The notes under the pieces are model-generated. The model searched no databases and was not told the origin of the DNA. It saw nothing but the letters and a program-made list of their open reading frames with translations. A program made the position numbers and the translations under genes. Positions 2,299 to 60,173 of a stretch of DNA of 64,000 bases are shown in pieces. Source of the stretch: an uncultured Planctomycetia bacterium (lineage in GTDB: Bacteria; Planctomycetota; Phycisphaerae; FEN-1346; JAACEH01); the NCBI GenBank assembly GCA_903929765.1, contig CAIYVX010000033.1, forward strand, positions 5,037 through 69,036, written 5' to 3'. Numbering within the stretch: the first letter of the stretch is position 1; every line of letters begins with the position of its first letter.

Positions 2299-2334
2299 CC
2301 GCGTTTGAAGAAATGCTTTCTAATTGGAGTTCCC

Positions 2335-4185
2335 ATGCCCCGCACATTCCGCGTCATCTTTCAGCCCTTCGGCCGCCAGGTGGCCGTTGCCGAGGGCCGC
2401 ACTGTTCTTGAGGCTGCGCAGCAGGCCGGCATCGAAATGACCTCGCCCTGCGGCGGGCATGGCACTTGCGGCGGATGTCGCGTCGAAATCACACGCGGCA
2501 CGCCCCCGCCCACCGACGCCGGCGCGGAACGGCTGACCGCCGAGGAACTTGGCCGCAATGTGCGACTGGCTTGCCAGACCCGCGTGACGCAGGACATGAC
2601 CATCGTCATTCCGCGCGAATCCCTCCTGTTCGACCAGCAGATTCTCGAAACCGGCATCGCCGTCAACGTTGAACTCGATCCCAACGTCCGCCGCGTGCCG
2701 CTCAAAATGCCCGAACCCTCCGTCGACGACCAGCGCAGCGACGCCGACCGCCTCACCGACGCCCTCGCGGAGCAGGGGGTCGAGGCCACGGTTGACCTGG
2801 CCCTGGCCCGCGAACTGCCCGACCGCCTCCGCCGCGCCGACTTCTCCGGCACCGCCGTCGTCCTCGCCGACCGCGTCGTCCAGTTCGATCGCGGCGATTC
2901 CAGCGCCGCAAATTACGGCGTCGCCGTCGACCTGGGCACCACGACCATCGTCGCCGCCCTCATGAACCTCGCCACCGGCCAGGAAGTGGCCGTCGCCTCC
3001 TGCGGCAATCCCCAGGCCGCCCACGGCGACGATGTGATCTCCCGCATCATGTACGCCCAGGAATCCGCCACGCGGCTCCGCGAACTTCAGCAACTCGCCG
3101 TCGGGGCCTTCAACAAACTGATCGACGAACTCTGCGAAAAGGCCGACCTCAAACGGACCTCCATCTACGAACTCGTCCTCGTCGGCAACACCACCATGAC
3201 GCACCTCATCCTCCGCCTCGACCCGACCTACATCGCCCGCGCCCCCTTCATCGCCGCCCTGCGCCGCGGGGCCGTCGCTGCGCCGCGAGATTTGGGCATC
3301 GCCATCAACCCGCGCGGCAGCGTTTACGTCGGCCCCAACATCGCCGGCTTCGTCGGCGCCGACACGGTGGCCGTCATCCTGGCCGCCGGAATGCACAAGT
3401 CCGACAAAATGCGTCTGGCCATCGACATCGGCACCAACGGCGAACTGGTCCTCGGCCACCGCCAGCGGCTCCTGGCCGCCAGCACGGCCGCCGGACCCGC
3501 CTTCGAGGGCGCCCGGATCAAATACGGCATGCGCGCCGCCGCTGGAGCCATCGACCGCGTCGACGTGCTCGACGGCCGCCTCCGCGTCCACGCCATCGGC
3601 GACGCCCCGGCCATCGGCCTGTGCGGCACCGGCCTGATCGAAGCCGTCAGCGCGTTCCTGGAACTGGGCGTCATCGACGAAACCGGCCGCATGATCGAAG
3701 ACGCGGATTTGGCCAAGCTGCCCAAATCTATCGCCGCGCGGCTCGTCGGGGCGGAAAACGACCGGGCCTTCGTCCTGGCCGACGCGAAGGAAACGCACAA
3801 CGGCCACCCGGTCCTCCTGACGCAAAAGGACGTGCGCGAAGTCCAGTTGGCCAAGGCGGCGATGTACGCCGGGGCCAAGGTGCTGATGGCCGAAATGGGC
3901 ATCAAGGTCGCCGACTTGGACGAAGTTCTCCTGGCCGGGGCCTTCGGCAACTTCATCCGTCCCGACCGGGCCAGGTCCGTCGGCCTTCTCCCCGAAACTC
4001 CGCTCGACCGCATCCGCTTCATCGGCAACGCCGCCGGCACGGGGGCGCGGATGATGCTTCTCGACCGCCGCCTCCGCGACACGGCGGAGGAGATCAGCCT
4101 CGGCGTGGAGCACGTCGAACTCTCCGGCCGCGCCGACTTCCAGGACTTCTTCGCCGAGGCGATGCTGTTTACCCCTCCCTCGTGA
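2335..4185 (+). CDS. 2Fe-2S ferredoxin / ASKHA-domain protein, RACo-like corrinoid reductive activase family
   Basis: N-terminal plant-type ferredoxin motif CGGHGTCGGCRVEI. Long ASKHA/DUF4445-like body (AVDLGTTT, DIGTNGE, TAAGPAFEG). GGAG lies 5 nt before the ATG at 2335. Confidence 0.75.
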   Translation: MPRTFRVIFQPFGRQVAVAEGRTVLEAAQQAGIEMTSPCGGHGTCGGCRVEITRGTPPPTDAGAERLTAEELGRNVRLACQTRVTQDMTIVIPRESLLFDQQILETGIAVNVELDPNVRRVPLKMPEPSVDDQRSDADRLTDALAEQGVEATVDLALARELPDRLRRADFSGTAVVLADRVVQFDRGDSSAANYGVAVDLGTTTIVAALMNLATGQEVAVASCGNPQAAHGDDVISRIMYAQESATRLRELQQLAVGAFNKLIDELCEKADLKRTSIYELVLVGNTTMTHLILRLDPTYIARAPFIAALRRGAVAAPRDLGIAINPRGSVYVGPNIAGFVGADTVAVILAAGMHKSDKMRLAIDIGTNGELVLGHRQRLLAASTAAGPAFEGARIKYGMRAAAGAIDRVDVLDGRLRVHAIGDAPAIGLCGTGLIEAVSAFLELGVIDETGRMIEDADLAKLPKSIAARLVGAENDRAFVLADAKETHNGHPVLLTQKDVREVQLAKAAMYAGAKVLMAEMGIKVADLDEVLLAGAFGNFIRPDRARSVGLLPETPLDRIRFIGNAAGTGARMMLLDRRLRDTAEEISLGVEHVELSGRADFQDFFAEAMLFTPPS

Positions 4186-4549
4186 CGGAAAACGGCATTT
4201 TATTTCCGCGTGGCTGCAAGCAGCCACCCTACAGGACTAAAAAAACAGCAAAAAAAGAAGAAGAGAAGATGGGTTTTCGTGAGTTTGCGTTCCGGGGGTT
4301 TCACCCCCGGCTACATTCTTTCGGCCCTTCGGGCCTTTGAGTTCGGTCTTTGGACGTGCCCCCGACGGCCAGAGCCGACGGCGTTTGCACGGCGGAAAAG
4401 ACGGGTACCCGCCCGACAGGAAACCTAACCCTAAAACCGTTTGACATTCCCGTCCTTCTTTGCTACCCTTCCGGCTTCTTTCCCCGACGATAAGCAGGGA
4501 AAAGCAGCGACCACGCCGTGGAGCGTGAATGGCTGCCGCAAAGGTTTTT

Positions 4550-17896: not shown

Positions 17897-18877
17897 CTAA
17901 TTGGGCCGGGTGCCATGGCCGCCGAATTCCTTCCACGTCTGAATCATCGCCCGATAGTTCGCCATCGGCACTTCCGACTGGACGGCATTGGAGGCCCCCA
18001 GCACGAAACCGCCTCCCGCCTTGCTCGTCTCCAGGAGTTCCCGGGTCGCCTGGCGGACCTGGTCCGGCCGGCCGGTGAGCAGCAGGCCGCAGTCGATGTT
18101 GCCGCACAGGCAGAGCCGGTTTCCGACAATCTCTCTGGCCTGGCTCATCTCCATCCCGGCGACCGGATCGATGGCTTGCAGCGCGTCCAACCCGGTGGCC
18201 GCAATGGCGTCCAGATGCCGCGTCAGGTTTCCGTCGCTATGCAGGATGGTGAACATACCCAGCCGTCTGATTTCGTCCGACCATTTCGTCAGGTACGGCA
18301 GAACCCAGCGCTCCATCTGCGCGGGGCTGAAAAAAGGACCAGAATTGTCCGCCATATCCGAGGGCGAAATGACCGCCTCCACCCCGCAATCGCGGAACCG
18401 CTTCGCCGCTTCGAGAGCGCCGCTAATACATTCCTCCGCCTGTTTGTCTATGCTTTCCGGATCATCGAAAAGTCGTTGGCAGAAATCTACCGAATAGTCC
18501 GCGCCGATGATGCCACCAGTGCTCGCGAAGAGCATCAGATCCGGCGGGGCGACCTCCCGCAGGATTTTGATCTGTCGCAAACGGGCCTCGCCCGGCAGGA
18601 CGTAATACGCCAAGACTCCCGGTGATTGTTCCCAGTAGGGGCCGGGCACGGACAGCGCTGCATACCCCATTTCCACCGACGTGGCCACCAATATCTCCGC
18701 GTTGGCCCGCAAGGCCTTATCCTGTTCCTGCTGGGACAACGTCTCAAATTCGTGCCCCAAAACGACGTGTCGGCCGGACGCCGCATCCCAGGCCTGAAAC
18801 TCCAGTTCCCAAACGGGCACCGCGCCCTCCGGCTTCTGTTTTTGCAGGGCCGCTCGCATATCCTCTCTTTTTCCCAC
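17897..18877 (-). CDS. Uroporphyrinogen decarboxylase (URO-D) family protein, MtaA/CmuA-like methyltransferase-type
   Basis: About 326-aa URO-D family layout (ILHSDGN, LDALQAIDP, CLCGNID). No exact function can be assigned. Confidence 0.7.
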   Translation of the reverse strand: MGKREDMRAALQKQKPEGAVPVWELEFQAWDAASGRHVVLGHEFETLSQQEQDKALRANAEILVATSVEMGYAALSVPGPYWEQSPGVLAYYVLPGEARLRQIKILREVAPPDLMLFASTGGIIGADYSVDFCQRLFDDPESIDKQAEECISGALEAAKRFRDCGVEAVISPSDMADNSGPFFSPAQMERWVLPYLTKWSDEIRRLGMFTILHSDGNLTRHLDAIAATGLDALQAIDPVAGMEMSQAREIVGNRLCLCGNIDCGLLLTGRPDQVRQATRELLETSKAGGGFVLGASNAVQSEVPMANYRAMIQTWKEFGGHGTRPN

Positions 18878-19174: not shown

Positions 19175-19489
19175 ATGGACGACAAGCTAAAGGAATGCCT
19201 CGAAAAATTGCACGACGCCACTCTTGTGGGTGTTTATGTTGACTGGGGCAGCGGCGAGGTTAGGTTTGACCTTGAAACTGGTATGACCAAAGGGCACGAG
19301 ATTGTCAAAATCCGGGGTCGTGGACTAACGTTCCTTGATTGCCCGAGACGTTACCCCTGGGGCCCGAGTGAATCTGTGAACTCCGTATGGGCCGAGAAAG
19401 TTGTTGGGAACGTCACCCAACTGAACGTGGAAATGCAAAGTGGCGACGTGATCATTGCCATTGTTAATGAATTTGTGGTCGATTTATAA
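19175..19489 (+). CDS. Hypothetical protein (low-GC orphan ORF)
   Basis: Intact ORF of about 104 aa from ATG 19175. Visibly lower GC than its flanks. No motif recognised. Confidence 0.4.
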   Translation: MDDKLKECLEKLHDATLVGVYVDWGSGEVRFDLETGMTKGHEIVKIRGRGLTFLDCPRRYPWGPSESVNSVWAEKVVGNVTQLNVEMQSGDVIIAIVNEFVVDL

Positions 19490-19529
19490 ATTAGCTGCTG
19501 AATTTTTCCGCAAAAATCTAAGGACGCCC

Positions 19530-21158
19530 ATGACCCTTACCGATTCCCCCAACACCCTCACCTACACCGGCCACGCCGTCCCGCCCCTTCCGCGCGGACT
19601 GCCCAAGACCGTCACCAGCCTCTGCCCCGAATGCCGCCGCACCATCCCCGCCGAAATCCGCGACGTCGCCGGTGCGGTCCGCATGTTCAAAGCCTGCCCC
19701 GACCACGGACCCTTCGAGGACATCATCTGGTCCGACACCAAGCTCTACCTCAAGGCCGAGGACTATTTCTACGGCGAGGGCAGGGGGTTGGAAAATCCCA
19801 ACACCGATGCCGCCGAGGCCGATTGCCCCAACGGTTGCGGCCTCTGCGGCCACCACCTCAGCCACACCGCCCTCGCCAACATCGACCTCACCAACCGTTG
19901 CAACCTCCAATGCCCGATCTGTTTCGCCAACGCCGGCGCCCAGGGCTACGTCGTCGAACCGACCTTCGACCAGATCCTCGGCATGTTGCGCACCCTGCGC
20001 GAAATGCAGCCCGTCCCCGCCCGCGTCATCCAGTTCTCCGGCGGCGAACCGACGCTCCACCCGCGCTTCCTCGATTGCCTCCGCGCCGCCCGCGACATGG
20101 GCTTCTCCCACCTCCAGATCGCCACCAACGGCATCCGCTTCGCCCAGGAACCCGATTTCGCCAAGCAGTGTGAGGAAGCAGGCCTCCACGATCTCTACCT
20201 CCAGTTCGACGGTCTCTCCGACGACATTTACAGGCAAACCCGCAACCGCAACCTCTGGGACCTCAAGCAACGCGCCGTCGAAGCCGTCTCCGCCACCGAC
20301 ATGAAAATCGTCCTCGTCCCCACCATCGTGCGCGGCGTCAACGACCACCAGGTCGGCGGCATCGTCAACTACGCTCTCGCCCACATCAACACCGTCGCCG
20401 GCATTTCCTTCCAGCCCGTCGCCTTCTGCGGCCGCATCGCCGCCGAAGAACGCCTCGCCAAACGCTACACCCTTTCCGACCTCGCCCACGACATCAGCCG
20501 CCAGACCGGCCTCACCGACCCCGACCGCGATTTCTTCCCGCTCTCCTGCGTCCAGCCCTTCACCCGCCTGGTCAACGCCCTCCGCGACCAGCCGACCATC
20601 AACCTGACCTGCCACCCGCACTGTTCCTTGGGCACATATATGTTCATGGGACGCGACGGCCGCGCCGTTCCCATTCCTGCCTTCATCGACCTGCCCAACT
20701 TCCTCGCCGACATGAACCGCCTCGCCGGAAAGGCCGAAGGCGGTCGCAGCCGCCTCCTCGCCCAGGCCTCCGCTTTCCAGAAACTTTACAAGCACTGGCG
20801 CTCCGCCGGCGCCCCCGCCGGCATGTCTTTCACCGACCTGCTCCACACCCTCAACGGCATGATCGACAAGAAGGTCGGCCGCGGCGAAGGCGAGAAAAAA
20901 ACCTTCAAATCCCTGATGGTCGCCGGCATGCACTTCATGGACGCCTACAACTACGACACCGCCCGGGCCCGCCGCTGCGTCATTCACTATTCCACGCCCG
21001 ACGCCCGGCTCTACTCCTTCTGCACCTACAACGCCGGCCCCTGCCACCGCGACGCCACCGAGCGCCGCCAGGCCCTGACCCCCGCCGAATACCAAGCCCG
21101 AACCAAGCAGGGTGATGCTTGCAGTCACGCGGTCGATAAATATGCAGGGGGCTGCTAG
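19530..21158 (+). CDS. Radical SAM protein with N-terminal Cys/His zinc-ribbon; architecture resembles class-D radical SAM / tetraether lipid synthase (Tes, GDGT-MAS)
   Basis: CNLQCPICFA (CX3CX2C) radical SAM cluster. N-terminal SLCPECRRTIPAEI...CPDHGPFEDIIWSD. Cys-rich C-terminal part (CHPHCSLG, CVIHYS...FCTYNAGPC). AAGGA before ATG 19530. The family call is from memory of MJ0619-type proteins. Confidence 0.8.
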   Translation: MTLTDSPNTLTYTGHAVPPLPRGLPKTVTSLCPECRRTIPAEIRDVAGAVRMFKACPDHGPFEDIIWSDTKLYLKAEDYFYGEGRGLENPNTDAAEADCPNGCGLCGHHLSHTALANIDLTNRCNLQCPICFANAGAQGYVVEPTFDQILGMLRTLREMQPVPARVIQFSGGEPTLHPRFLDCLRAARDMGFSHLQIATNGIRFAQEPDFAKQCEEAGLHDLYLQFDGLSDDIYRQTRNRNLWDLKQRAVEAVSATDMKIVLVPTIVRGVNDHQVGGIVNYALAHINTVAGISFQPVAFCGRIAAEERLAKRYTLSDLAHDISRQTGLTDPDRDFFPLSCVQPFTRLVNALRDQPTINLTCHPHCSLGTYMFMGRDGRAVPIPAFIDLPNFLADMNRLAGKAEGGRSRLLAQASAFQKLYKHWRSAGAPAGMSFTDLLHTLNGMIDKKVGRGEGEKKTFKSLMVAGMHFMDAYNYDTARARRCVIHYSTPDARLYSFCTYNAGPCHRDATERRQALTPAEYQARTKQGDACSHAVDKYAGGC

Positions 21159-49281: not shown

Positions 49282-49738
49282 CCCAGAGGGCGAACGCGCC
49301 CGGGTTCAAGGCCATTTCTCCCCGTTTCTTTCTCGGCCAGAAGGTAATCGACTCGATATATCCGGAGAGGACTTGACGGGTGAATCCGTCGCGTCGCCCG
49401 TCGGCTGCTTATCGCAATCCGGTCATCATTTCCAGGTTGAACTGGAAAGACATTGACCCACAGAAGCAACCAAGTTGAAATCGAAAAAAAGCCATCGCTC
49501 GCCGTAACTTGCTTGTTTTACACGTGTTGCATCAAAACGCAAAATCAATGACCGGACAGTAGTGTGCTACAATTAGAAATCGACCCCACTAGCGAGATTG
49601 CGTCATGGGCAGTCTCGAAGCGGACCTGTTCGAAACTCTGCGGTTTGAGCCAGTGTCTCTTTGAACTCCGGGATTTGGCCGGGGCCGATGCGATGCTGAT
49701 TCGTGTCCTTGAAATCTCGCCGGCTCAGCGAGGAACGG

Positions 49739-50512
49739 TCAGAGCCGGCCCAGCAAGCGCAGCAGGCCGTCGAGAATCGTGAGGGGATGAGGCGGGCAGC
49801 CGGGAACGAAAAGATCGACGGGAACCGTCCCGGCAGCGCCGTTGTGAACTTCCGGGTGGTCAATGTACGGTCCACCGGAAATAGCGCAGGCCCCGACGGC
49901 GATGACGATTTTGGGCGACGGCACGGCCTGCCAGGTTTTCTCCAGGGCGAGTTTCATGTTGTCCGAGACCGCGCCGGTGATGAGCAAGCCGTCGGCGTGT
50001 CGCGGCGAGGCGACGAACTGGACGCCGAAGCGTCCGAGGTCCCAGCCCACCGTTCCCAGCACGTTGGTGTCGGCCTCGCAGGCGTTGCAGCCGCCGGCGG
50101 AGACCTGACGCAGCCGGAGCGAGCGGCCGAAGATTTTGCGGGCTTTCGCGTCGAGGGCGGCGGCGAGTTTAAGCGGCGCCTCGCCCGTGATCAAATTCTC
50201 CCGCGTGCACGTCGCCAGACGATAATCGTTACTGTAGGTAATCGCCTGGTGCGGACACGCGGCGGCGCAGTCGGGACAGAAGAGGCAGCGCCCGAGATCG
50301 ACGGTCAGGCGGGTGGCCGCGCCGGCTTGCGGCGCTTCGACAATCGCTCCGGTCGGGCAGGCATCGACGCAGCGCCGGCAGTCGGCCTGGCAGCGAGCCG
50401 CGACAAGTTGCGGCAACCCGCGAAAACGTTCCGGCAGCACCGGCGGCGGTCCGTCGGGAAAACGGATCGTGCGGTGTTTTTGCTGCCATCTGGCCAACAA
50501 CACTCTAATCAT
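49739..50512 (-). CDS. Fusion of a 2x[4Fe-4S] ferredoxin (HyfH/NuoI-like) with a NuoB/HyfI-type hydrogenase small subunit
   Basis: CQADCRRCVDACP and CLFCPDCAAACP ferredoxin motifs. NuoB-type ligands GGCNACE, GACAISGGP, VPGCPPHP. Confidence 0.8.
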   Translation of the reverse strand: MIRVLLARWQQKHRTIRFPDGPPPVLPERFRGLPQLVAARCQADCRRCVDACPTGAIVEAPQAGAATRLTVDLGRCLFCPDCAAACPHQAITYSNDYRLATCTRENLITGEAPLKLAAALDAKARKIFGRSLRLRQVSAGGCNACEADTNVLGTVGWDLGRFGVQFVASPRHADGLLITGAVSDNMKLALEKTWQAVPSPKIVIAVGACAISGGPYIDHPEVHNGAAGTVPVDLFVPGCPPHPLTILDGLLRLLGRL

Positions 50513-50531
50513 GACGGCTCTCCGACAACTT

Positions 50532-50990
50532 CTACAAATCGTGTCCGCAATAGGACAGGTTGAAGCTCTTGTTGCAGAGCGGGAAATCTGAAACGGCCTG
50601 GTTGCGCAAGGCGCAGGCCAGACCGAACCAGTTGTGGAACGAGGGATCGACGACCTTGTAGGAGGTAAACCGGCCGCGCTCGTCGGTCAGGACGACGTGG
50701 CAGATTTCGCCGCGCCAGCCTTCAATCAGCGAGACGGTCGCCTGGTTGGGGGCCAACGGTCCGACCTCTGTTGACAGAACCAGCAGGCCGCCGGCCTCGT
50801 CGTCGGCCAGAACGGCGAGCAATCGGAGTTTGTCGTTTGTGGCCAATTGGCCGAACAGGGCCGAAAGCCGCGCGCCGGCGCGAACCTCGTCGATGACAAC
50901 GTCGCGGAAGTCGTCGAATTCAATCAGCGGCACATCGGCCACGGGGGCGGCCTGGGCATTCTGAAGATGAAGGACGGAGTCGTCCATCAT
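50532..50990 (-). CDS. Miniaturised NuoD/[NiFe]-hydrogenase large-subunit-like protein (152 aa, no Ni-binding cysteine boxes)
   Basis: The C-terminal roughly 63 aa (EGWRGEICHVV...VVDPSFHNWFGL...DFPLCNKSFNLSYCGHDL) line up with the C-terminus of NuoD/HycE-type subunits. The ATG at 50990 overlaps the upstream stop (ATGA), with GGAGG upstream. The central catalytic domain is absent. Confidence 0.6.
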   Translation of the reverse strand: MMDDSVLHLQNAQAAPVADVPLIEFDDFRDVVIDEVRAGARLSALFGQLATNDKLRLLAVLADDEAGGLLVLSTEVGPLAPNQATVSLIEGWRGEICHVVLTDERGRFTSYKVVDPSFHNWFGLACALRNQAVSDFPLCNKSFNLSYCGHDL

Positions 50991-52495
50991 GGCCCTCCAG
51001 TGATGATGCCGGAGGCCTGGGTCAAGGTCTCTCGCAGGAAGTCCGGCATCCACAATCCGACGGCCAACAACAGACCAAGCGGCGCCCAGACCAGAGCCTT
51101 CTCGATCAGCGTGGACTTTTCAATCGGAAGCGGTTGCGCGGGCGCGGGCTGCTCCGATGATTTCCCCCAGGCGGCGGCGATGGCGTAGCGCAGGGCGGCG
51201 ACGAAAACGATCGAGAGGCCGGCCAGGAAAATGGCCATGACGAGGAAGTCGCCTTTGTCGACGGCGGCTTTGAGAATCAGGAACTCGCTCATGAAGATGG
51301 CGAACGGGGCCACGCCGATCAGGGCCAGGAGACTGACGAACAGTCCACCGCCCCAGAGCGGCGCGGAGCGGGCGGCCCCGGCCAGAACGCCGAGGTCGTG
51401 GGTGCCGAACCGTTGGCCCAGGCGGCCGGCGGAGAAAAAGGCCAGCGGCTTGCAGAGCGAATGGTTCAACACATGGAACATGGCGGCAAAGACGCCGACG
51501 CCGCCCAGGCCGACGCCGAGGGCGATAATGCCCATGTGCTCGACGCTGCTATAGGCCAGGAGCCGCTTGGCGTCGCGCTGAAAAAGGATGAACGCCGCAG
51601 CGACCACAATCGAGACCAGGCCGACGAGCGTGAGCAGACCAGTCGCCCAGCCGATATTCCCTGTGGCGGCCTCGACCAGCGGCAGGCAGCGCAAGATGCA
51701 ATAGAGGGCGGAGTTCAAGAGGAACCCCGAGAAGACGGCCGAGACCGGGGCAGGGGCCTGGCTGTGGGCGTCCGGCAGCCAGTTGTGCATCGGGGCCAGG
51801 CCGGCCTTGGTGCCATAACCGACGAGCATGAAGATGAAGGCCATCTTGAGCAGCGCGGGGTTCAGGTCCGGAGCGACGTCGCGCAGCCGGGTCCAGAGCA
51901 GGGCGTCGCCCGCCGGAAGATGAGCCTGGCCGGCGGCGGCCCCGATCAGCAGCGTGCCAATGAAGGCAAAGGCCACGCCCACCGAGCAGACGATCAGATA
52001 TTTCCACATGGCTTCGAGCGAACCCGGACTGCGGTGGAGGCAGATCAGGAACGCCGTCAGGAGCGTCGTGGCCTCGACGCCCACCCAGACCACGCCCAGG
52101 TTGTTGGAGATGAGTACCAGGGCCATGGCGCCGAGGGAACCGAGCCACAAGGCCCCGAAGCGCCGGGCGGTTCGCAGCGAGAAATGTCCCGCCCGTTCCT
52201 CGTGGCCGAAGTAGAACCAGGCGTAGACGGAACTCAGCCCGAAGACCGCGAGCAGGATGGCCAGGTGATAGGCCGACAAGGCGTCGAGGTAGAACCAGCC
52301 GGCGCAGGCTTCGACCGGGCCGTGGGCAAAGACCGCCCAGACAGCGGCGCCGGTGGCCACGGCTTCCGCCGCCACTACGGCGCAAACGCCGGCCAGCACG
52401 GTCTTGGGCGAGCGCAGGAGCAGGCACACCAAAGCGCCCAGCGCCGGCACGATCAAGAGTGGCCAGAGGAGCCACGACATTTCCATGAGCATCAA
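50987..52495 (-). CDS. Proton-conducting membrane transporter subunit (HyfF/NuoN-like antiporter-type)
   Basis: About 14 TM segments. The conserved WLPDAHSQAPAPVSA motif of the NuoL/M/N-Mrp family. Confidence 0.85.
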   Translation of the reverse strand: MMLMEMSWLLWPLLIVPALGALVCLLLRSPKTVLAGVCAVVAAEAVATGAAVWAVFAHGPVEACAGWFYLDALSAYHLAILLAVFGLSSVYAWFYFGHEERAGHFSLRTARRFGALWLGSLGAMALVLISNNLGVVWVGVEATTLLTAFLICLHRSPGSLEAMWKYLIVCSVGVAFAFIGTLLIGAAAGQAHLPAGDALLWTRLRDVAPDLNPALLKMAFIFMLVGYGTKAGLAPMHNWLPDAHSQAPAPVSAVFSGFLLNSALYCILRCLPLVEAATGNIGWATGLLTLVGLVSIVVAAAFILFQRDAKRLLAYSSVEHMGIIALGVGLGGVGVFAAMFHVLNHSLCKPLAFFSAGRLGQRFGTHDLGVLAGAARSAPLWGGGLFVSLLALIGVAPFAIFMSEFLILKAAVDKGDFLVMAIFLAGLSIVFVAALRYAIAAAWGKSSEQPAPAQPLPIEKSTLIEKALVWAPLGLLLAVGLWMPDFLRETLTQASGIITGGP

Positions 52496-53139
52496 CCTTT
52501 CAGCGAGTCCAACTGGTCGGCGTCCAGGTGTTCAAATTCCCGGCTGATGTGGTAGGTGGCAATCGTCATGACGAAGACCCCCACGAAAGCGTCGAGCAGG
52601 ACGCCCAGTTCCACCAGGGCCGGAATCTCTTTCACCAGGGCCAGGCCCAGCACATAAATCCCGTTCTCCATCACCAGATAGCCGAGTACCTGGTTGATGG
52701 CAATCTTGCGGCTGATGATGACGAAGAGTCCGATCAGGATGGTCGACAGGGCCACCGGCAACAGCAGGGCCAGGTGCGGCGTCTCCGGCAACGGCAGCCG
52801 CGAGATCAACCAGAACGAAATGGCCAGTGTCAACACGCCGATCACGATCGACAGCGAGTAGCCGACAAACGGCTCGACCTCGCGCTGCACATTGGCCTGA
52901 CGCAAAGCCTTCAGGAGCAACTGCGGGAAGATCACGCCGCGGATAATCACGCTGGCGGCGGCGATGAACCACAACCGCCCCGAAATTCCCTGGTCCCAGG
53001 ACAACAGGAGCGGCAAGAGACCCAGGGCGATGCCCTCGGCGGCGACGATGCGCGTGCAGGCGATCAGTCGGCTCGAGGCCAGCAGCCACAGGTTCAGCAG
53101 CACCAGCAGGACCATCAACCCATCGATTGGTTCGTTCAT
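52492..53139 (-). CDS. Hydrogenase-4 component E-like small membrane subunit (HyfE/NuoK-like)
   Basis: 215-aa polytopic protein, VLGYLVMENGIYVLG. ATGA overlaps at both ends. Confidence 0.7.
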   Translation of the reverse strand: MNEPIDGLMVLLVLLNLWLLASSRLIACTRIVAAEGIALGLLPLLLSWDQGISGRLWFIAAASVIIRGVIFPQLLLKALRQANVQREVEPFVGYSLSIVIGVLTLAISFWLISRLPLPETPHLALLLPVALSTILIGLFVIISRKIAINQVLGYLVMENGIYVLGLALVKEIPALVELGVLLDAFVGVFVMTIATYHISREFEHLDADQLDSLKG

Positions 53140-54062
53140 ACGGGACGCCTCAAAACCAGGACCAGGGCGACGACGGACAAGGCCCCGGCCGTGACCAGCA
53201 GTTGCGGCACGCGAACCATTCGCAGCCGCGCCATTGTTGATTCCACCGTGCCGACTGCCACGCCCAGGCTCAACAACCCGGCCAGCAACACGGCGAGATC
53301 AACCAGCCACGTGCCGCTATGGGCCGGCAGAACAATCTGCACCAGGATCATGCCCATGACCCACATTTTCAGGGCCGCACCGTACAGGATGAAAGCGAAA
53401 TCGGGACCGCCGTGATCCAGGACCATGACCTCGTGAATCATCGTCAGCTCGAGGTGCGTGTTCGGATCGTCCACGGGAATGCGGGCGTTCTCGACCAGGA
53501 AGACGAGGAACATGGCCGCTGCGACCAGGGCCAGTTCCGGCGCCGCCGACCACCAGCTCTCGACCGTCAGGCCGCCGAAGATACCGGTCAGCGACAGGCT
53601 GCCCGTGAGCTTGGCCAGCGCCGCCAGGCCGAGCAGGAAGGCCGGCTCGGCCAGAGCGGAGAAGGTTACTTCGCGGCTGGCGCCCATGCCCTCAAAGGCC
53701 GAGCCGGTGTCGAGCGCCGCCAGGACGGTAATGAATCGCATCAGGCCGAACAGGCCGGCCAACAAGATCAGGTCGCCGTCAAACCCAAGCAGCGAGCTGC
53801 CGCCGCCGGTGGGTACGATCAACAAGGCCGTCAGGACCGCCGCCAGGCCCAGGGCCGGACCCAGCCGAAACACCCAGCTCGTCGTCCGGCTGTAGACGGC
53901 GCCCTTATGGAGCAATTTCCACAGGTCATAGTAAAGTTGCAGGAGCGGCGGTCCCTTTCGACCTGCGAAGAAGGCCTTGGTGCGGTTGATCACGCCGGGC
54001 AGGAGCGGCGCCAGGACCACCGACAACGCGAGGTTGAGGATCGTTGTGGAGTTCATGGTCAT
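53136..54062 (-). CDS. HyfC/HycD/NuoH-like membrane subunit
   Basis: LPGVINRTKAFFAGRKGPPLLQLYYDLWKLL... is typical of formate hydrogenlyase subunit 4 / NuoH. The ATG at 54062 overlaps the upstream stop. Confidence 0.8.
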   Translation of the reverse strand: MTMNSTTILNLALSVVLAPLLPGVINRTKAFFAGRKGPPLLQLYYDLWKLLHKGAVYSRTTSWVFRLGPALGLAAVLTALLIVPTGGGSSLLGFDGDLILLAGLFGLMRFITVLAALDTGSAFEGMGASREVTFSALAEPAFLLGLAALAKLTGSLSLTGIFGGLTVESWWSAAPELALVAAAMFLVFLVENARIPVDDPNTHLELTMIHEVMVLDHGGPDFAFILYGAALKMWVMGMILVQIVLPAHSGTWLVDLAVLLAGLLSLGVAVGTVESTMARLRMVRVPQLLVTAGALSVVALVLVLRRPV

Positions 54063-56023
54063 CCCAGCTTCCAGGCCAGCAGGATCAGCAGGGCCAGAAC
54101 AATGTACAGGACGTAGAGTTGCAACCGCCCGTGTTGCAGCCATTGCAGACGGCCCATCAGCCATTTGACGCCCTGGAAGGCCGGGCGGAAAACGCTCTCG
54201 CCGAACAGGTCGGGCGTGTGCGTTACCAGGCTGGCTTCGCGCGGGAAAAGGCCGGTCGGCAACTGGGCCTCGCGACGCGTGCGGAGGAACATTTGAAAGA
54301 CTTCCGTGAGCGGCTCGGCGAACGAGGAGGCGGTGTACTGCATCCGCGCCGTTGGGGCCACATAGCCGCAATCCCAGGTGCCTGCAGTCTCGACCTTGCG
54401 ACCGGCGAGAAGCCGGCGTCGCAAAAGAAGCAATCCGCCGAGGATCACCACCACAGCGCCTCCGGCCCAGGCCATGCCGTTGGCCAGCCCCGTCGTCCCC
54501 GACAGTTCTGCGTGTGCCGTCTCAACCGGGAGGCCCGCCGCCACGGCCACGGCCTCGCTCAGCCACGGCAGCACCAGAGGCGCGAGCAGGCCGATCAGAA
54601 TACAGGCCAGAGCCAACGCGATCATCGGAATCAGCATCGCCGAGGGAACCTCGTGGGCTTTTGCTGCCTGCTCGGTGCGCGGCTCTCCGAGAAACACCAC
54701 GCCGCCGGCTTTGGCGAAACACGCCGCCGCCAGGCCGCCGATCAGGGCCAGACAGCCGATGGCCGCCAACAGCGCCGCCGGACCCCAGGAACCCAACGCC
54801 ACCATGCCCTTGAGTGAGCCGACAAAAATGAGCAATTCGCTGATGAACCCGTTCAGCGGCGGCAGCCCGGCGATGGCCACGGAAGCAATCAGGAACGTGG
54901 CCGCCGTCCACGGCATTTTCTTAATGAGCCCGCCGAGGCGGTCGATCTCTCGTGTGCCCGTGGCGTGCAACACCGCGCCCGCCCCGAGGAACAAAAGCCC
55001 CTTGAACAGGGCGTGATTGACGACGTGCAGCAACCCGCCCGCAAACCCCAGGACGGCCACGGTCATGTTGCCGCGCGCCAGGCCGACCAGGCCCACGCCC
55101 AGACTGAGGGTGATGATACCGATATTTTCCACGCTGCTATAGGCCAGCAACCGTTTCAGATCGCTCTGTGAGAGGGCCAGCAGCACGCCGAGAATCCCGG
55201 AGGTCACGCCCACGCCGATCAGAACCCAGCCCCACCATTCCAGCGGCGGGCCGAGGAACGTCAACGTGCGCACCAGGCCGTAGATGCCGGTCTTGATCAT
55301 CACGCCCGACATCACCGCCGAAACGTGGCTCGGCGCCGCCGGATGGGCCTCCGGCAGCCAAACGTGCAGCGGCAGGAAGCCCGCCTTCGTCCCGAACCCG
55401 ATCACCGCCAGCAGGAACAGGACGCTCGGCATTCCCGCTGCCGTGAAGTTCTCGAAGTCCAGCGAGTTGTTCTCGCGCCCCAGCAGCAGGAACATCACCA
55501 GCAGAAAGGCCGTGCCCAGGTGCATGGCAATCAGGTAGGTCCAGCCGGCCTGCCGCACGCTCTCCTTTTCGTTCTCGGAGGTGACCAGGAAGAACGATGA
55601 CAGCGACATCACCTCCCAGGCCACGAGGAACAGCAGGCCGTTACGGGCCACGACCAGCAGCACCATTGATGCCGCCAGCAGATTGAAGCAGAGCCACGAC
55701 CTGCCGTGGGACTTGGCGCGATCAAGGTAGGCCGATCCGTAGATGGCGGCCAGGGCCGGAAGCACGACGATCGGCAGCACGAACAGGGCCGACAGGCCGT
55801 CCATAGCCAGCGAGAACGATCCCAGCGGCATGTTCCACGCCCAGCGAATCGGCTCGACCGAGCCGCCGGCCAGTGCCATCCCCGCCGGGATCGCGGCCGC
55901 CGCCGCGCCCAGGACGGCGGCGCCAACGCCGAACGCCATGGCGGCGCGGCGGGACGAGCCGCTCAGAAACGAAGCGACCCCTCCCAGCAGATAGATGCCG
56001 ATGGCGACGACGATCAGATACAT
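54059..56023 (-). CDS. HyfB/NuoL-like proton-conducting membrane transporter subunit
   Basis: 654 aa, about 16 TM segments, WLPEAHPAAPSHVSAVMSGVMIK antiporter motif. Confidence 0.85.
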   Translation of the reverse strand: MYLIVVAIGIYLLGGVASFLSGSSRRAAMAFGVGAAVLGAAAAAIPAGMALAGGSVEPIRWAWNMPLGSFSLAMDGLSALFVLPIVVLPALAAIYGSAYLDRAKSHGRSWLCFNLLAASMVLLVVARNGLLFLVAWEVMSLSSFFLVTSENEKESVRQAGWTYLIAMHLGTAFLLVMFLLLGRENNSLDFENFTAAGMPSVLFLLAVIGFGTKAGFLPLHVWLPEAHPAAPSHVSAVMSGVMIKTGIYGLVRTLTFLGPPLEWWGWVLIGVGVTSGILGVLLALSQSDLKRLLAYSSVENIGIITLSLGVGLVGLARGNMTVAVLGFAGGLLHVVNHALFKGLLFLGAGAVLHATGTREIDRLGGLIKKMPWTAATFLIASVAIAGLPPLNGFISELLIFVGSLKGMVALGSWGPAALLAAIGCLALIGGLAAACFAKAGGVVFLGEPRTEQAAKAHEVPSAMLIPMIALALACILIGLLAPLVLPWLSEAVAVAAGLPVETAHAELSGTTGLANGMAWAGGAVVVILGGLLLLRRRLLAGRKVETAGTWDCGYVAPTARMQYTASSFAEPLTEVFQMFLRTRREAQLPTGLFPREASLVTHTPDLFGESVFRPAFQGVKWLMGRLQWLQHGRLQLYVLYIVLALLILLAWKLG

Positions 56024-56034
56024 GAAAGTTCCTG

Positions 56035-56760
56035 CTAACCCCCTGCGGCCGGGGAAGATGGTTCTGTGGAAACTTGCGGGCTATTCGAGGTCAGGCCCTG
56101 ATCCACCCGGGCGGCCGCATCGAGCAATTCCTGGCGCGAGGCCTGCCGCGTGACGGCGCTGTGGAACTCGTTGTCGCGCAGGGCAAAGGCCAGTTTCGAC
56201 AACAGGCTCAGGTGCCCGCGAATGGTCGGGCTGACCAGGGTGAAAAGCGTTTTTACGAGTTGGCCGTCCATGGCCCCGAAGTCTATCGGCTGTTCCAGAA
56301 AACAGAGCGCGACCATCGGCCGCGGAATGTGCAGCACAATCGGATTACGCACATGCGGGATGGCGATACCGTCGCCGATGGCCGTCGAGCCGAGCGACTC
56401 GCGGGCCAGGAGAACCTTGAGCAGGAAGTCGCGGTCGACTTCCTCGGGCAACGGCATGATCTCCACCACGGACTTGAGGACCGAGGGCTTGTCGATCCCG
56501 CCCACGCGGTAGAAGACGCCGCCGGAGCGTAACGCGTCGGCAAAGGTGAAGACGCTGCCGGTCGCCCCTTCCGGCTCGGCGAAGATCTCCGGCGAGACGT
56601 TGATCCGCCTGGCCGTGGCCCATTCCAGCAACTCGGCCCGGTTGAACCGGTACTGGTCGTTGACCTTGTAGGCCGGCAGCTTCCCTTCCTTGACCCAGCG
56701 GTAGATAGTCTTTTCGGAAAGGTCCAGAATCTTAGCCGCATCGTGGACGGTAAGTTGCAT
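56035..56760 (-). CDS. Excisionase/MerR-type HTH domain fused to a PTS EIIA (fructose/nitrogen, PtsN-like) domain
   Basis: N-terminus LTVHDAAKILDLSEKTIYRWVKEGKLPAYKV. The C-terminus carries the EIIA-2 active-site region GDGIAIPHVRNP. It ends 11 nt before the HyfB-like start. Confidence 0.75.
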   Translation of the reverse strand: MQLTVHDAAKILDLSEKTIYRWVKEGKLPAYKVNDQYRFNRAELLEWATARRINVSPEIFAEPEGATGSVFTFADALRSGGVFYRVGGIDKPSVLKSVVEIMPLPEEVDRDFLLKVLLARESLGSTAIGDGIAIPHVRNPIVLHIPRPMVALCFLEQPIDFGAMDGQLVKTLFTLVSPTIRGHLSLLSKLAFALRDNEFHSAVTRQASRQELLDAAARVDQGLTSNSPQVSTEPSSPAAGG

Positions 56761-56964
56761 TCTTCTCCTGACTTCTCGTCTGAGCCACATTTTGGACTTC
56801 AATGGACAGGAAAATTTTATAGCGAACCAACTGAGCCGTCAATGGCAAATCTGATTCCGCAGCATCAGCCAAGACATCCGCCATTTCGCTCCTAACTCTC
56901 GTCCCCGGCGAAACTTAAATTCAATCAAAATCGCCGCCCATGAGGATATCCACGAGGGGTGCCC

Positions 56965-58026
56965 CTACAAGGCCCGGTGCTGTTCCAGCGCCGCGATGGT
57001 GCGGCGCATGTCTTCGGGGATGGGGGCCTCGAAGGTGATCTGCTTGCCGGTCATGGGGTGCCAGAGGGTGAGGCGGCGGGCGTGGAGGGCCTGGCGGGAG
57101 ATGAGAACCTGGGCGGCGTCTTCGGGCTTGCCGGTCAGGTCGGCGAGAGTGAGTTGGGAGCGGGAAGAGTAGGCGGCGTCGGCCAGGACTTTGAGGCCAA
57201 CGCTGGCCAGGTGGATGCGAATCTGGTGGGTGCGGCCGGTCAGGGGTTTGCAGGTGACGAGAGCGAAGCCGCGGTAGTGGCGGTCGATCTGGTAGCGGGT
57301 GACGGCCTCGCGGCCGGAGATCAGGTCGACGGCCATTTTTTCGCGGACTTTGGGGTGGCGGCCGATGGGCTTGTCGATCACGTCGCCGTCGCATTGCGGC
57401 GCGCCCTCGACGATGGCCAGGTACTCCTTCTTGACGCGGCGGTTTTCCCATTGCCGGGCCATCTGGGCGTGGGCCCGGTCGTCTTTGGCCACCAGGATGA
57501 TGCCCGACGTGTCGCGGTCGAGTCGATGGACAATGCCGGGCCGCTCCGGACCGTTGACGCCGCTCAATTTTTGAAAATGATACGCGAGAGCATTGACCAG
57601 CGTGCCGCCCCAGTTGCCGCGCGCGGGATGGACGATCATGTTGGCGGGCTTGTTGATGACGACCATGAGGTCGTCCTCGTAGACGATGTCGAGCGGGATG
57701 TTCTCCGGCTCGATTTCCATTTTGGTGGGCGGGGGGAGTTCGACGTGGACGATTTCGCCGCCGGCAATTTCGCGCGAAGGCTTGGACGGCTGCCCGTTGA
57801 CGAGGACGCGACCGCCCTTGATCAATTTCTGGAACCAGGCCCGCGAGCGGTCGGGGAACCGCGCCGCCAGAAACGAATCGAGCCGCCGGCCGGCGTTGAC
57901 CGGACGAATCCGCAGTTCGACGGTTTCGGTTTCCCCGGTTTCCTCGTCACCGAAATCGTCTTCGATGACGTCGGCGCCTTCGGGGTCGGGAGGCGGGGTA
58001 GGAAGATTTTTTTCGGGATCGTTCAA
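56965..58026 (-). CDS. rluD: RluA-family 23S rRNA pseudouridine synthase (RluD-like) with S4 domain
   Basis: RLDSFLAARF S4 region and the catalytic HRLDRDTSGIILVAK. The track ORF extends to 58104 but overlaps the upstream gene. TTG 58026 follows GGAG. Confidence 0.85.
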   Translation of the reverse strand: MNDPEKNLPTPPPDPEGADVIEDDFGDEETGETETVELRIRPVNAGRRLDSFLAARFPDRSRAWFQKLIKGGRVLVNGQPSKPSREIAGGEIVHVELPPPTKMEIEPENIPLDIVYEDDLMVVINKPANMIVHPARGNWGGTLVNALAYHFQKLSGVNGPERPGIVHRLDRDTSGIILVAKDDRAHAQMARQWENRRVKKEYLAIVEGAPQCDGDVIDKPIGRHPKVREKMAVDLISGREAVTRYQIDRHYRGFALVTCKPLTGRTHQIRIHLASVGLKVLADAAYSSRSQLTLADLTGKPEDAAQVLISRQALHARRLTLWHPMTGKQITFEAPIPEDMRRTIAALEQHRAL

Positions 58027-59546: not shown

Positions 59547-60173
59547 CTAGGCCACCAGTTTTTTGGCCACGTCGACGGCCGAGGCGGCATCGGCAGCATA
59601 GCCTTCGGCGCCGATTTCGTCGGCGTAGTTCTGGGTGACCGGGGCGCCGCCGATCATGACCTTGGCGGTGAGGCCGGCGGCCTTGAGGGCCTTGACCACG
59701 TCGCGCATCTGGGGCATCGTGGTGGTCAGCAGGGCCGACATGGCCACGACGCACTTTCCATTTTCCTTGACCGAGGCGACAAACTTGTCGGCCGGGACGT
59801 CGGTGCCGAGGTCGATGACCTGGAAGCCGCCGCCCTTGAGCATCATGCCGACGAGGTTCTTGCCGATGTCGTGGAGGTCGCCCTTGACGGTGCCCAGGAC
59901 GATCTTGCCGATGGGCTGAACGCCGCTGGAGGTCAGCACGGGCTGCAGCAGGTTCATGCCGGCGTGCATGGCCCGAGCGGCGATCAGGACTTCGGGAACA
60001 TAGACTTCGTTCTTTTTGAACTTGGCGCCGATGATGGCCATGCCGGCGATCAGGCCTTCTTCGAGAATCTTCTTCGGGCTGACCTTCTCGTCAATGGCCT
60101 GCTGGACCAACTTGGTTACGGTGTTGCGATCGCCTTTTTGCAGCGCTGCACTGATGCCATTGAGATCTGCCAT
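59547..60173 (-). CDS. Cobalamin-binding corrinoid protein (methyltransferase cognate, MtmC/MtbC/MttC-like)
   Basis: B12-binding DxHxxG motif GDLHDIGKNLV, the SALLTTTM and GGAP signatures, and an N-terminal helical cap. Confidence 0.85.
   Translation of the reverse strand: MADLNGISAALQKGDRNTVTKLVQQAIDEKVSPKKILEEGLIAGMAIIGAKFKKNEVYVPEVLIAARAMHAGMNLLQPVLTSSGVQPIGKIVLGTVKGDLHDIGKNLVGMMLKGGGFQVIDLGTDVPADKFVASVKENGKCVVAMSALLTTTMPQMRDVVKALKAAGLTAKVMIGGAPVTQNYADEIGAEGYAADAASAVDVAKKLVA

Follow-up and report, generated by a model that had tools for sequence, protein, structure and literature searches.

Is the 152-aa protein that stands in the place of the large subunit in this operon a working part of a new kind of membrane complex, or what is left of an ordinary one? 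The locus lies in a 64-kb stretch of DNA (the window), and the original prediction saw in it a complex design in which the Fe-S relay is retained and the catalytic subunit 'nearly gone'. We propose that this is very probably a canonical Ehr operon whose large subunit has been hit by a recent repeat-mediated deletion, resulting in a loss-of-function allele and not in a new complex design.

The locus is an ordinary Ehr operon

Positions 49739-56802 of the window (minus strand) hold the canonical seven-gene Ehr operon, including a regulator of the HTH-EIIA type. Six co-directional minus-strand genes had been predicted here, and both their coordinates and their domain calls are borne out; the count was one short, as a seventh gene, encoding the HTH_17/PTS-EIIA regulator, lies 11 nt upstream and accompanies the cassette in 37 of 44 relatives. 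This regulator (56035..56802, minus strand), the first gene of the conserved cassette, joins an excisionase-type HTH_17 domain (PF12728, 2e-17) to a PtsN-like PTS EIIA-2 domain (PF00359, 4.9e-22; NCBIfam PtsN-like, 5.6e-17) and keeps 28/28 family-invariant residues. Just upstream of it, on the same strand, a sigma-70-like match (TTGACG-17-TAAAAT, 56814..56842) is a possible operon promoter, recognised by consensus match only in a region that holds two such matches against 0.9 expected.

The membrane part begins with an antiporter-like subunit of 654 aa (HyfB/HycC/NuoL-like, EhrA-type; 54059..56023, minus strand; PF00361, 3e-55), whose best solved match is HycC (7Z0S_C, 1.6e-71) and which, on alignment to HycC, has the TM5 Glu, the TM7 Lys (GFGTKAG) and the TM12 Glu (ISELL), with 85 of 86 family-invariant residues kept. 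There follow, on the same strand, a NuoH/HyfC/HycD-like subunit of 308 aa (53136..54062; PF00146, 5e-32) and a HyfE-like subunit of 215 aa with a NuoK-like C-terminal part (52492..53139; PF00420, 4.3e-7), each with an ATGA overlap with its upstream gene, and then a second antiporter-like subunit (HyfF/NuoN-like) of 501-502 aa (50987..52495; PF00361, 6.7e-47). The NuoH-like and HyfF-like proteins retain 60/60 and 59/59 family-invariant residues, and the HyfE-like protein 20 of 22, its two changes (Q35E and K67R) being conservative. ATGA junctions had been claimed at four places; those at 54059-54062, 53136-53139 and 50987-50990 are present, while 52492-52495 reads TTGA, giving either a TTG start or an ATG start 3 nt later as TGATG. 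The operon genes are free of frameshifts and their translational-coupling overlaps are retained.

The small subunit (49739..50512, minus strand, 257 aa), whose gene has an SD-like GGAG 8 nt before its ATG, fuses an N-terminal 2x[4Fe-4S] ferredoxin (HycF/NuoI/MbhN-like; two Fer4 matches) to a NuoB/HycG-like domain (PF01058, 9.7e-26), and matches HycG (7Z0S_G, 1.8e-29, Cys aligned), MbhN (1.1e-12) and HycF (1.1e-11). The NuoB/HycG-like domain carries all four proximal-cluster Cys (CxxC, GxC, PGCPP), and in alignments with HycG and MbhJ its GGCNACE, GACAISGG and PGCPP fall on their Cys motifs, so that the proximal [4Fe-4S] ligands are kept; 78/78 family-invariant residues are present. The claim of a retained Fe-S relay is upheld by these NuoB-type ligands and by both ferredoxin Cys motifs.

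Group-4-like large and small subunits, a NuoH-like and antiporter-like subunits in one cluster, as identified by Pfam, NCBIfam and PDB matches, make up the gene set of Ehr, which HydDB and others already class as a non-hydrogenase family (PMC5037454, PMC6349859), with a large subunit that has no Ni/Fe-coordinating residues (PMC6349859, PMC13194489) and with subunits named EhrA-1 (NuoL-like), EhrC (HyfE-like), EhrL and EhrS (PMC7894505). The predicted Ehr-type assignment agrees with the full-length relatives, in which AGDT replaces the CGIC and NLSYCG the DPCYSC of HycE, so that all four NiFe Cys are absent, and with the lack of maturation genes nearby. The 152-aa protein itself has lost the L1 region, and its C-terminal sequence is FNLSYCGHDL, without NiFe Cys. 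Compared by description with the Ehr of Geobacter (G. sulfurreducens GSU0739-0745, Coppi 2005; Ehr also in Marreiros et al. 2013, BBA 1827:198), the locus shares the NuoL-like, NuoH-like, HyfE-like and second antiporter-like subunits, the 'large' and 'small' hydrogenase-like subunits and the absence of linked maturation genes; unlike published Ehr, its large subunit has a private 347-codon internal deletion. The window's Ehr subfamily has as features the conserved HTH-EIIA regulator and the NuoI-NuoB fusion; no published description of either was found in the Ehr literature consulted. What the locus does not have is the NuoC-NuoD large subunit of about 500 aa of this subfamily; with 152 aa and residues 77-423 missing, it is Ehr by descent but a defective allele. 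The family is widespread and already described, and the locus is one of its ordinary members.

Relation to hydrogenases and complex I

E. coli formate hydrogenlyase-1 (Hyc; PDB 7Z0S/7Z0T) is the closest solved structure for every subunit, with the full-length large subunits of relatives matching HycE at 1.3e-47, and the gene order B-C-E-F-large-small resembles that of E. coli hydrogenase-4 (hyfB, C, E, F, G, (H) I). The large subunit of the full-length relatives is a NuoC-NuoD fusion, as are HycE and HyfG. Unlike Hyc and Hyf, the Ehr locus has no NiFe cysteines and no HyfA, HyfD, HyfJ, HycB, FdhF, HycI or hyp genes, and its HycF-like and HycG-like proteins are fused. As predicted, no hyp, hycI, formate dehydrogenase, HyfA or HyfD gene was found in the 64 kb, and HyfA/HycB, HyfD, formate dehydrogenase H and the HycI/HyfK protease are absent from the window and from 93 related loci. 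Hydrogenase-4/formate hydrogenlyase (group 4a [NiFe]) was rejected on the missing NiFe Cys and on equivalog scores that all fall below cut-off (616.6 bits against 667 for NCBIfam 'hydrogenase 4 subunit B', 103.9 against 136 for HyfE and 384.3 against 610 for HyfF).

Respiratory complex I (Nuo, 11-14 subunits) was also rejected: its separate NuoA, J, K and M are missing, the membrane subunits being limited to NuoL-, NuoH-, HyfE- and NuoN-like ones, and a full-length relative scores 179 against the NuoD equivalog cut-off of 360. Pyrococcus furiosus MBS/MBX (PDB 6U8Y) and the Q-module of complex I descend from hydrogenases: the NiFe site of their NuoD-like subunit is lost, and another acceptor is reduced. 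The full-length large subunit matches 6U8Y_L (1.4e-15) and Nqo4 (1.7e-35) more weakly than HycE, the inventory of MBS/MBX and complex I is, unlike that of Ehr, larger (Mrp module; NuoA/J/K/M), and there is no evidence of quinone or polysulfide chemistry for the Ehr locus in this sequence analysis.

The short subunit is the product of a single internal deletion

The shortened large subunit (EhrL minus residues 77-423; 50532..50990, minus strand, 152 aa), delimited by tblastn with a full-length relative and by nucleotide alignment to the nearest relative, L165, consists of residues 1-76 of the normal 502-aa protein joined in frame to about its last 76-79 (424-502). The NuoC-like domain contributes its N-terminus (residues 1-76 of the short protein) and the NuoD/HycE-like domain its C-terminal end (residues 77-152), finishing ...SDFPLCNKSFNLSYCGHDL; PF00346 matches the short protein only over residues 77-145, at 23.8 bits, just under the cut-off of 24. 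In the tblastn search residues 1-75 fall on 50987-50763 and residues 423-503 on 50777-50535, with no other large-subunit match in the 64-kb window. This clean in-frame fusion of N- and C-terminal ends rules out a '152-aa remnant' in the sense of a gradually reduced subunit.

L165 has 89% nucleotide identity on both flanks and a large subunit of 502 aa. Its nt 1239-2279, exactly 1,041 bp or 347 codons, are absent from the window, L165 1-1238 aligning by blastn with window 51995-50761 and L165 2280-3314 with window 50769-49734, with 9 nt common to both blocks. The deleted segment is bounded by two 9-bp direct repeats (GAGGTCGG, "EVG"; both L165 flanks GA(A/G)GTCGG), of which a single copy is left over at the junction in the window (GAGGTCGGA, codons E-V-G; 50761..50769, minus strand). 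Recombination or slippage between the two in-frame repeats would have removed the 1,041 bp, and an in-frame product is automatic because both repeats lie in the same frame.

The deletion takes away 88 of the 122 columns conserved at >=97% (72%), including seven invariant His and three invariant Cys. No part of the large subunit is more conserved than the C-terminal segment that is kept, in which 34/34 conserved columns are present, with one I->V change; upstream, the ATGA coupling is preserved, and so is the distance to the gene downstream. The same deletion is found in ENA ERZ18626558 scaffold_4441, which aligns without gaps over 7,908 bp and differs at 8 positions; the two contigs are nearly identical and possibly stem from related samples.

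The short form is private to one strain

The family motif is present in >589 species genomes, with large-subunit ORFs of about 505 aa, and the subfamily spreads over Planctomycetota, Verrucomicrobiota, Acidobacteriota, Deltaproteobacteria, Elusimicrobia and others. Wherever the large-subunit gene is complete, in 121 of 121 loci, it has the full-length form (at least 450 of 503 residues); the 36 short versions among the loci examined are incomplete because a contig end falls within the gene. A normal large-subunit gene is also present in the nearest relatives, whose adjacent HyfF-like proteins show 84-92% identity, and in contigs at 84-86% identity the normal sequence runs on past the breakpoint (STEVGQTYPALTP...). 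No second N75+C77 protein was found among 1.84e9 (1.84 billion) representatives or in a 5.8e9-cluster search, and no other stub-type large subunit in the 160 loci examined; an internal fragment in L016 was rejected as a second short form, its context being unrelated and without a small subunit. The cassette is conserved across relatives and the 152-aa form is not, so that the idea of a design with a 'nearly gone' catalytic subunit has to be given up: as the relatives always carry the full large subunit, this is a decayed locus. Downstream of the cassette no conserved gene was found in 93 loci, upstream only the regulator is conserved, and the surveyed loci hold no conserved redox partner gene.

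A model for the origin and consequence of the deletion

We infer that the large subunit has lost its function, and the redox-coupling module is most probably disabled, since the deletion leaves little of the NuoC-like domain and nothing of the core of the NuoD-like fold. The event is recent, as next to no family-invariant residue has been lost from the other six genes; such undecayed genes are expected after a recent event and fit continued selection on the operon just as well. In intact relatives, going by homology to FHL, Mbh and complex I, a soluble low-potential donor, e.g. ferredoxin, would most likely give electrons to the fused 2x[4Fe-4S] domain, from which the NuoB-type cluster would pass them to an acceptor at the large-subunit/NuoB/NuoH interface, this transfer being coupled to ion translocation through the antiporter-like subunits; the NuoI-NuoB fusion would carry three [4Fe-4S] clusters. 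It is possible that intact Ehr large subunits, as a family and not in the window specifically, bind a different cofactor via their invariant His/Cys/Asp set (H146, H154, H162, C167, D208, H213, C269, C284, C489 and C498 in L165 numbering). The 152-aa protein may have a residual structural role, as the reading frame, the ATGA coupling, the conserved C-terminus and the downstream spacing have all been kept, and a second intact large-subunit gene may lie outside the 64-kb window.

The alternative that fares best, improbable as it is, takes the 152-aa protein for a functional 'mini' large subunit with its in-frame architecture under selection, in a complex remodelled without the NuoD-like pocket, e.g. 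a ferredoxin-linked or purely antiporter-type ion translocator. The deletion is indeed in frame, with both gene junctions, the conserved C-terminal 76 residues and all other subunits intact, but the architecture is confined to one strain whose relatives at 84-92% identity carry the full gene, 72% of the invariant residues are lost, the flanking 9-bp repeats account for an accidental origin, and the AF2 model is of low confidence (mean pLDDT 54.8) with no confident compact fold. We give a slightly smaller chance to a fusion that is alive in that its C-terminal element packs on the NuoB- and NuoH-like subunits, so that the membrane arm and the Fe-S subunit with its three clusters can form a minimal complex working without the NuoD-type pocket; if true, it would be a natural experiment showing how small a working core of the complex-I/hydrogenase superfamily can be.

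It is just as doubtful that the genome really carries a full-length gene, the short one having arisen as an artefact of assembly or being a minority variant that the assembler favoured. The sequence does come from short-read metagenome assemblies, and ERZ1426725 (10,973 bp), with an identical HyfF-like protein, lists no gene after it and may break there, as with two coexisting alleles. Against this, the same junction occurs in contigs of 72 kb and 7.9 kb that belong to different assemblies, and is clean, in frame and without Ns; a 9-bp repeat is far below any assembler k-mer, so a false join is not attributable to it, and the presence of the deletion in a second, independent contig makes an assembly error unlikely. 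A conserved Ehr operon class with a stub for a catalytic subunit and the Fe-S relay kept, as originally predicted, is barely credible, as the window alone speaks for it and not one other locus of 160, nor any database protein, has such an architecture.

Having weighed these alternatives, we retain the recent repeat-mediated deletion of a canonical Ehr large subunit. A 'catalytic-subunit-free' class of Ehr complex does not exist, and a false lead is thereby removed. What the locus provides is a clean natural microhomology-mediated in-frame deletion hitting the Ehr redox module in an environmental population. As it knocks out this module in such a population, it suggests that the Ehr complex is dispensable under some conditions, and a 2026 Geobacter study also makes the case for relaxed selection on ehr (PMC13194489). 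The Ehr subfamily, as a very widespread and self-contained seven-gene cassette, merits experimental attention itself.

Gene content and family of the cassette

The minus-strand cassette of the window is a member of the published category of energy-converting-hydrogenase-related (Ehr) complexes. Its catalytic subunit, all but missing although the Fe-S relay is whole, is best explained as a recent in-frame deletion allele private to this strain. The six minus-strand open reading frames of the original prediction are all present where they had been placed, and encode a NuoL/HyfB-like subunit B (54059-56023; Pfam Proton_antipo_M, 654 aa), a NuoH-like subunit C (53136-54062; NADHdh/NuoH, 308 aa), a HyfE-like subunit E (52492-53139; Oxidored_q2, 215 aa), a HyfF-like subunit F (50987-52492; Proton_antipo_M, 501 aa), a 152-aa large-subunit remnant (50532-50990; sub-threshold Complex1_49kDa match over residues 77-145 only) and a 257-aa small subunit (49739-50512; two Fer4 motifs and Oxidored_q6/NuoB). 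Three of the four junctions described as ATGA overlaps are indeed so, while that at 52492-52495 reads TTGA. The nearest NCBIfam models for the membrane subunits are HyfB, HyfE and HyfF, all scoring below the equivalog cut-offs. A regulator gene with HTH_17 and PTS-EIIA domains (56035-56802, minus strand) precedes the structural genes by 11 nt and has a promoter-like site immediately upstream, and the opposite boundary of the operon is marked by a tRNA-Met with a terminator-like hairpin.

The NuoL-like subunit of the family retains Glu in TM5, Lys in TM7 and Glu in TM12, residues characteristic of antiporter-like pumps, and the small subunit, fused to a HycF/MbhN-like 2x[4Fe-4S] domain, keeps all four proximal-cluster cysteines. 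In the alignment of a full-length Ehr large subunit with E. coli HycE (7Z0S_E; E = 1.3e-47), the nickel ligands are replaced: AGDT of the Ehr relatives sits at CGIC of HycE, and NLSYCG at its DPCYSC. The assignment to an Ehr-type complex devoid of catalytic hardware is borne out. The published category comprises hydrogenase-related complexes without NiFe ligands whose role was never established (PMC6349859; PMC4758237, citing Marreiros et al. 2013; PMC7894505 and PMC13194489, citing Coppi 2005), and HydDB explicitly filters Ehr out as non-hydrogenases (PMC5037454). Annotation of the 64-kb window turned up neither hyp nor hycI nor formate dehydrogenase genes, which confirms the predicted absence of all three.

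When genomes, one for each species, were scanned for the C-terminal signature SDFPLCNK...FNLSYCGH, at least 589 proved to encode it. Across the 160 loci compared, 80 from the species-genome scan and 80 more from metagenomes, the cassette is shared by Planctomycetota, Verrucomicrobiota, Acidobacteriota, Deltaproteobacteria, Elusimicrobia, Hydrogenedentes and further groups, in the order regulator, B, C, E, F, large subunit (an ORF of about 505 aa) and small subunit. The only conserved upstream neighbour is the regulator (37 of 44 loci); no conserved gene lies 3′ of the small subunit among 93 loci, and a conserved electron-donor gene adjoining the cassette was looked for and not found. In the window and in these 37 loci, across phyla, the regulator directly upstream of this Ehr subfamily fuses an excisionase-type HTH to a PtsN-like PTS EIIA domain, which suggests that PTS(Ntr)-type phosphorylation controls the subfamily; the Ehr literature examined yielded no description of an HTH-EIIA regulator beside Ehr.

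Intact Ehr large subunits carry an invariant set of His (H108, H146, H154, H162, H183, H213, H249, H448 and H469), Cys (C167, C269, C284, C489 and C498) and Asp (D208) residues, numbered as in L165, the nearest intact relative of the window locus (L165:1009-2517), even though these proteins are without the NiFe cysteines. The set may form a different metal or cofactor site.

Mapping of the deletion

A full-length relative matches the window in two blocks, residues 1-75 at 50987-50763 and residues 423-503 at 50777-50535, with no further pieces in the window. Closer relatives came from a protein search with the HyfF-like subunit, which was of use in dating the deletion; a metagenome scan with the small subunit returned relatives only at ≤70% identity and was no help in this. 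L165 (JGI 3300037357), whose HyfF-like protein is 92% identical, has a large-subunit gene of 502 codons and, after it, a gene for a small subunit of 257 aa. At the nucleotide level L165 1-1238 corresponds to window 51995-50761 (88.6% identity) and L165 2280-3314 to window 50769-49734 (89.4%), and 9 nt are common to both blocks. The left site in L165 reads ACA GAA GTC GGC CAA (TEVGQ), the right site GAA GAG GTC GGA CCG (EEVGP) and the window junction ACA GAG GTC GGA CCG (TEVGP). Exactly 1,041 bp (347 codons) between two in-frame direct repeats are missing from the window and one repeat copy remains, the signature of a slippage or microhomology-mediated deletion. Such an event between the repeats would have produced the 152-aa fusion, in frame because the repeats are. 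Three more near relatives (84-86% identity) continue into normal sequence at the left breakpoint.

Against an assembly artefact stands a second contig, assembled separately (ENA ERZ18626558, 7,908 bp), which matches window 49421-57328 without gaps and through the same junction; its 8 mismatches comprise 7 at its extreme end and 1 that is synonymous. A repeat of 9 bp is too short to deceive a k-mer assembler. One more contig (ERZ1426725), whose HyfF-like protein is identical, seems to end at this point of the operon, which could be a hint of coexisting alleles.

Another rearrangement seems to have taken place in a relative with 84% identity to the window in the HyfF-like protein. Between its F gene and a full-length large subunit lies a chimeric 197-aa ORF (L163:7423-8016, also L164:4324-4917), of which the first 46 residues are a window-clade large-subunit N-terminus (61% identity) and the remainder a C-terminal piece from an antiporter-like subunit. 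In the large and small subunits encoded next, identity to the window clade is no higher than about 64-65%. The arrangement resembles a scar of recombination that replaced the distal operon half, so the ehr locus of the window clade has been rearranged more than once.

Singularity of the 152-aa protein

The original prediction viewed the reduced catalytic subunit as a design of the complex, a reading that does not survive comparison with the relatives. Large-subunit matches cover at least 450 of 503 residues in 121 of the 160 loci that have one and are cut by a contig end in 36; the remaining three, all internal partials, are those of the window, of its twin contig and of the unrelated fragment in L016. 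Searched against 5.8 billion protein clusters, the 152-aa protein found itself and thousands of matches on its C-terminal half only. HMMER, run exhaustively against 1.84 billion representatives, returned proteins of about 500 aa matching in two stretches, together with C-terminal fragments, and the N75+C77 layout recurred in none. The full HyfG-type subunit is present in every relative with a complete gene, the very outcome that the original prediction had named as marking a decayed locus.

Three groups of candidates for further short forms were rejected. Spans over query 1-152 or 21-152 in tblastn matches to loci L077, L030 and L070 are chance extensions into normal preceding sequence, and all three belong to the 121 loci above. 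Many database matches of 135-265 aa that lie on long contigs are the C-terminal ends of normal genes, split by frameshifts where the assembly is from long reads, or by contig ends; frameshifted genes such as those of L001 (ENA ERZ25039537 contig_34019) explain why protein databases list short 'large subunits' on long contigs. L016, a Planctomycetales MAG contig, holds a solitary C-terminal fragment whose gene neighbourhood is unrelated and includes no small subunit.

The L016 piece itself (L016:9794-10243, 150 residues) adjoins antiporter-like genes of a different type and is either a relic or a misassembly. In L001 the ehr cassette adjoins a nif-like cluster (NifH, two P-II proteins and Oxidored_nitro genes), and every gene in that region is fragmented by frameshifts.

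Consequence and age of the deletion

Of the 122 columns that are ≥97% conserved among 120 full-length relatives, the deletion takes out 88; the other 34 all lie in the C-terminal part that is left, and the 76 N-terminal residues that are left contain none. Among the lost residues are FERE, HEVxVGPxHAGxIEPGHFRFQC, LGxQHRG, GD....H, ELERxAxHxGD, CGRxRG and CGxRxGR. Given these losses and an AlphaFold2 model of the 152-aa protein, built from the available alignment, with no confident fold (mean pLDDT 54.8, pTM 0.45), large-subunit function has most likely been lost in the window strain. The other genes keep their invariant residues (regulator 28/28, B 85/86, C 60/60, E 20/22, F 59/59, small subunit 78/78) within the range of intact relatives, without decay, so that either little evolutionary time has passed since the deletion or the genes left still have a use. 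Two conservative changes in the HyfE-like subunit, Q35E and K67R, fall at positions ≥95% conserved in 90 relatives, and no relative has more than two such changes.

Surroundings of the operon

Elsewhere the window carries ordinary chromosomal genes (rpoD, dnaG, ruvAB, pyrG, prs and rpsF-ssb-rpsR-rplI), with sugar/MFS transporters and some corrinoid-protein genes. The latter belong to corrinoid-methyltransferase systems and are scattered at 2305-4185, 17897-18877, 19455-21158 and 59547-60173. Their products are a reductive activase (RACo), a methyltransferase of the URO-D/MtaA type, a radical-SAM protein that has an HMPTM zinc ribbon, and a B12-binding protein, whose gene is no more than about 3 kb away from the ehr operon on its upstream side. 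An Rfam Acido-Lenti-1 sRNA match (4292-4336, plus strand; 43.6 bits, gathering score 37) lies between the genes for the RACo-like corrinoid activase and for a pyruvate phosphate dikinase, and may hint at Acidobacteria or Lentisphaerae-PVC as the phylum. Window 1-2000 has a G+C content of 46%, against about 62% elsewhere, with no ORF of coding character picked and no Rfam match.

Implications for the Ehr family

The window locus is a defective copy of an already known family, and it sheds no further light on the role of intact Ehr complexes. What the survey yields is how widespread and self-contained the regulator-linked Ehr subfamily is.
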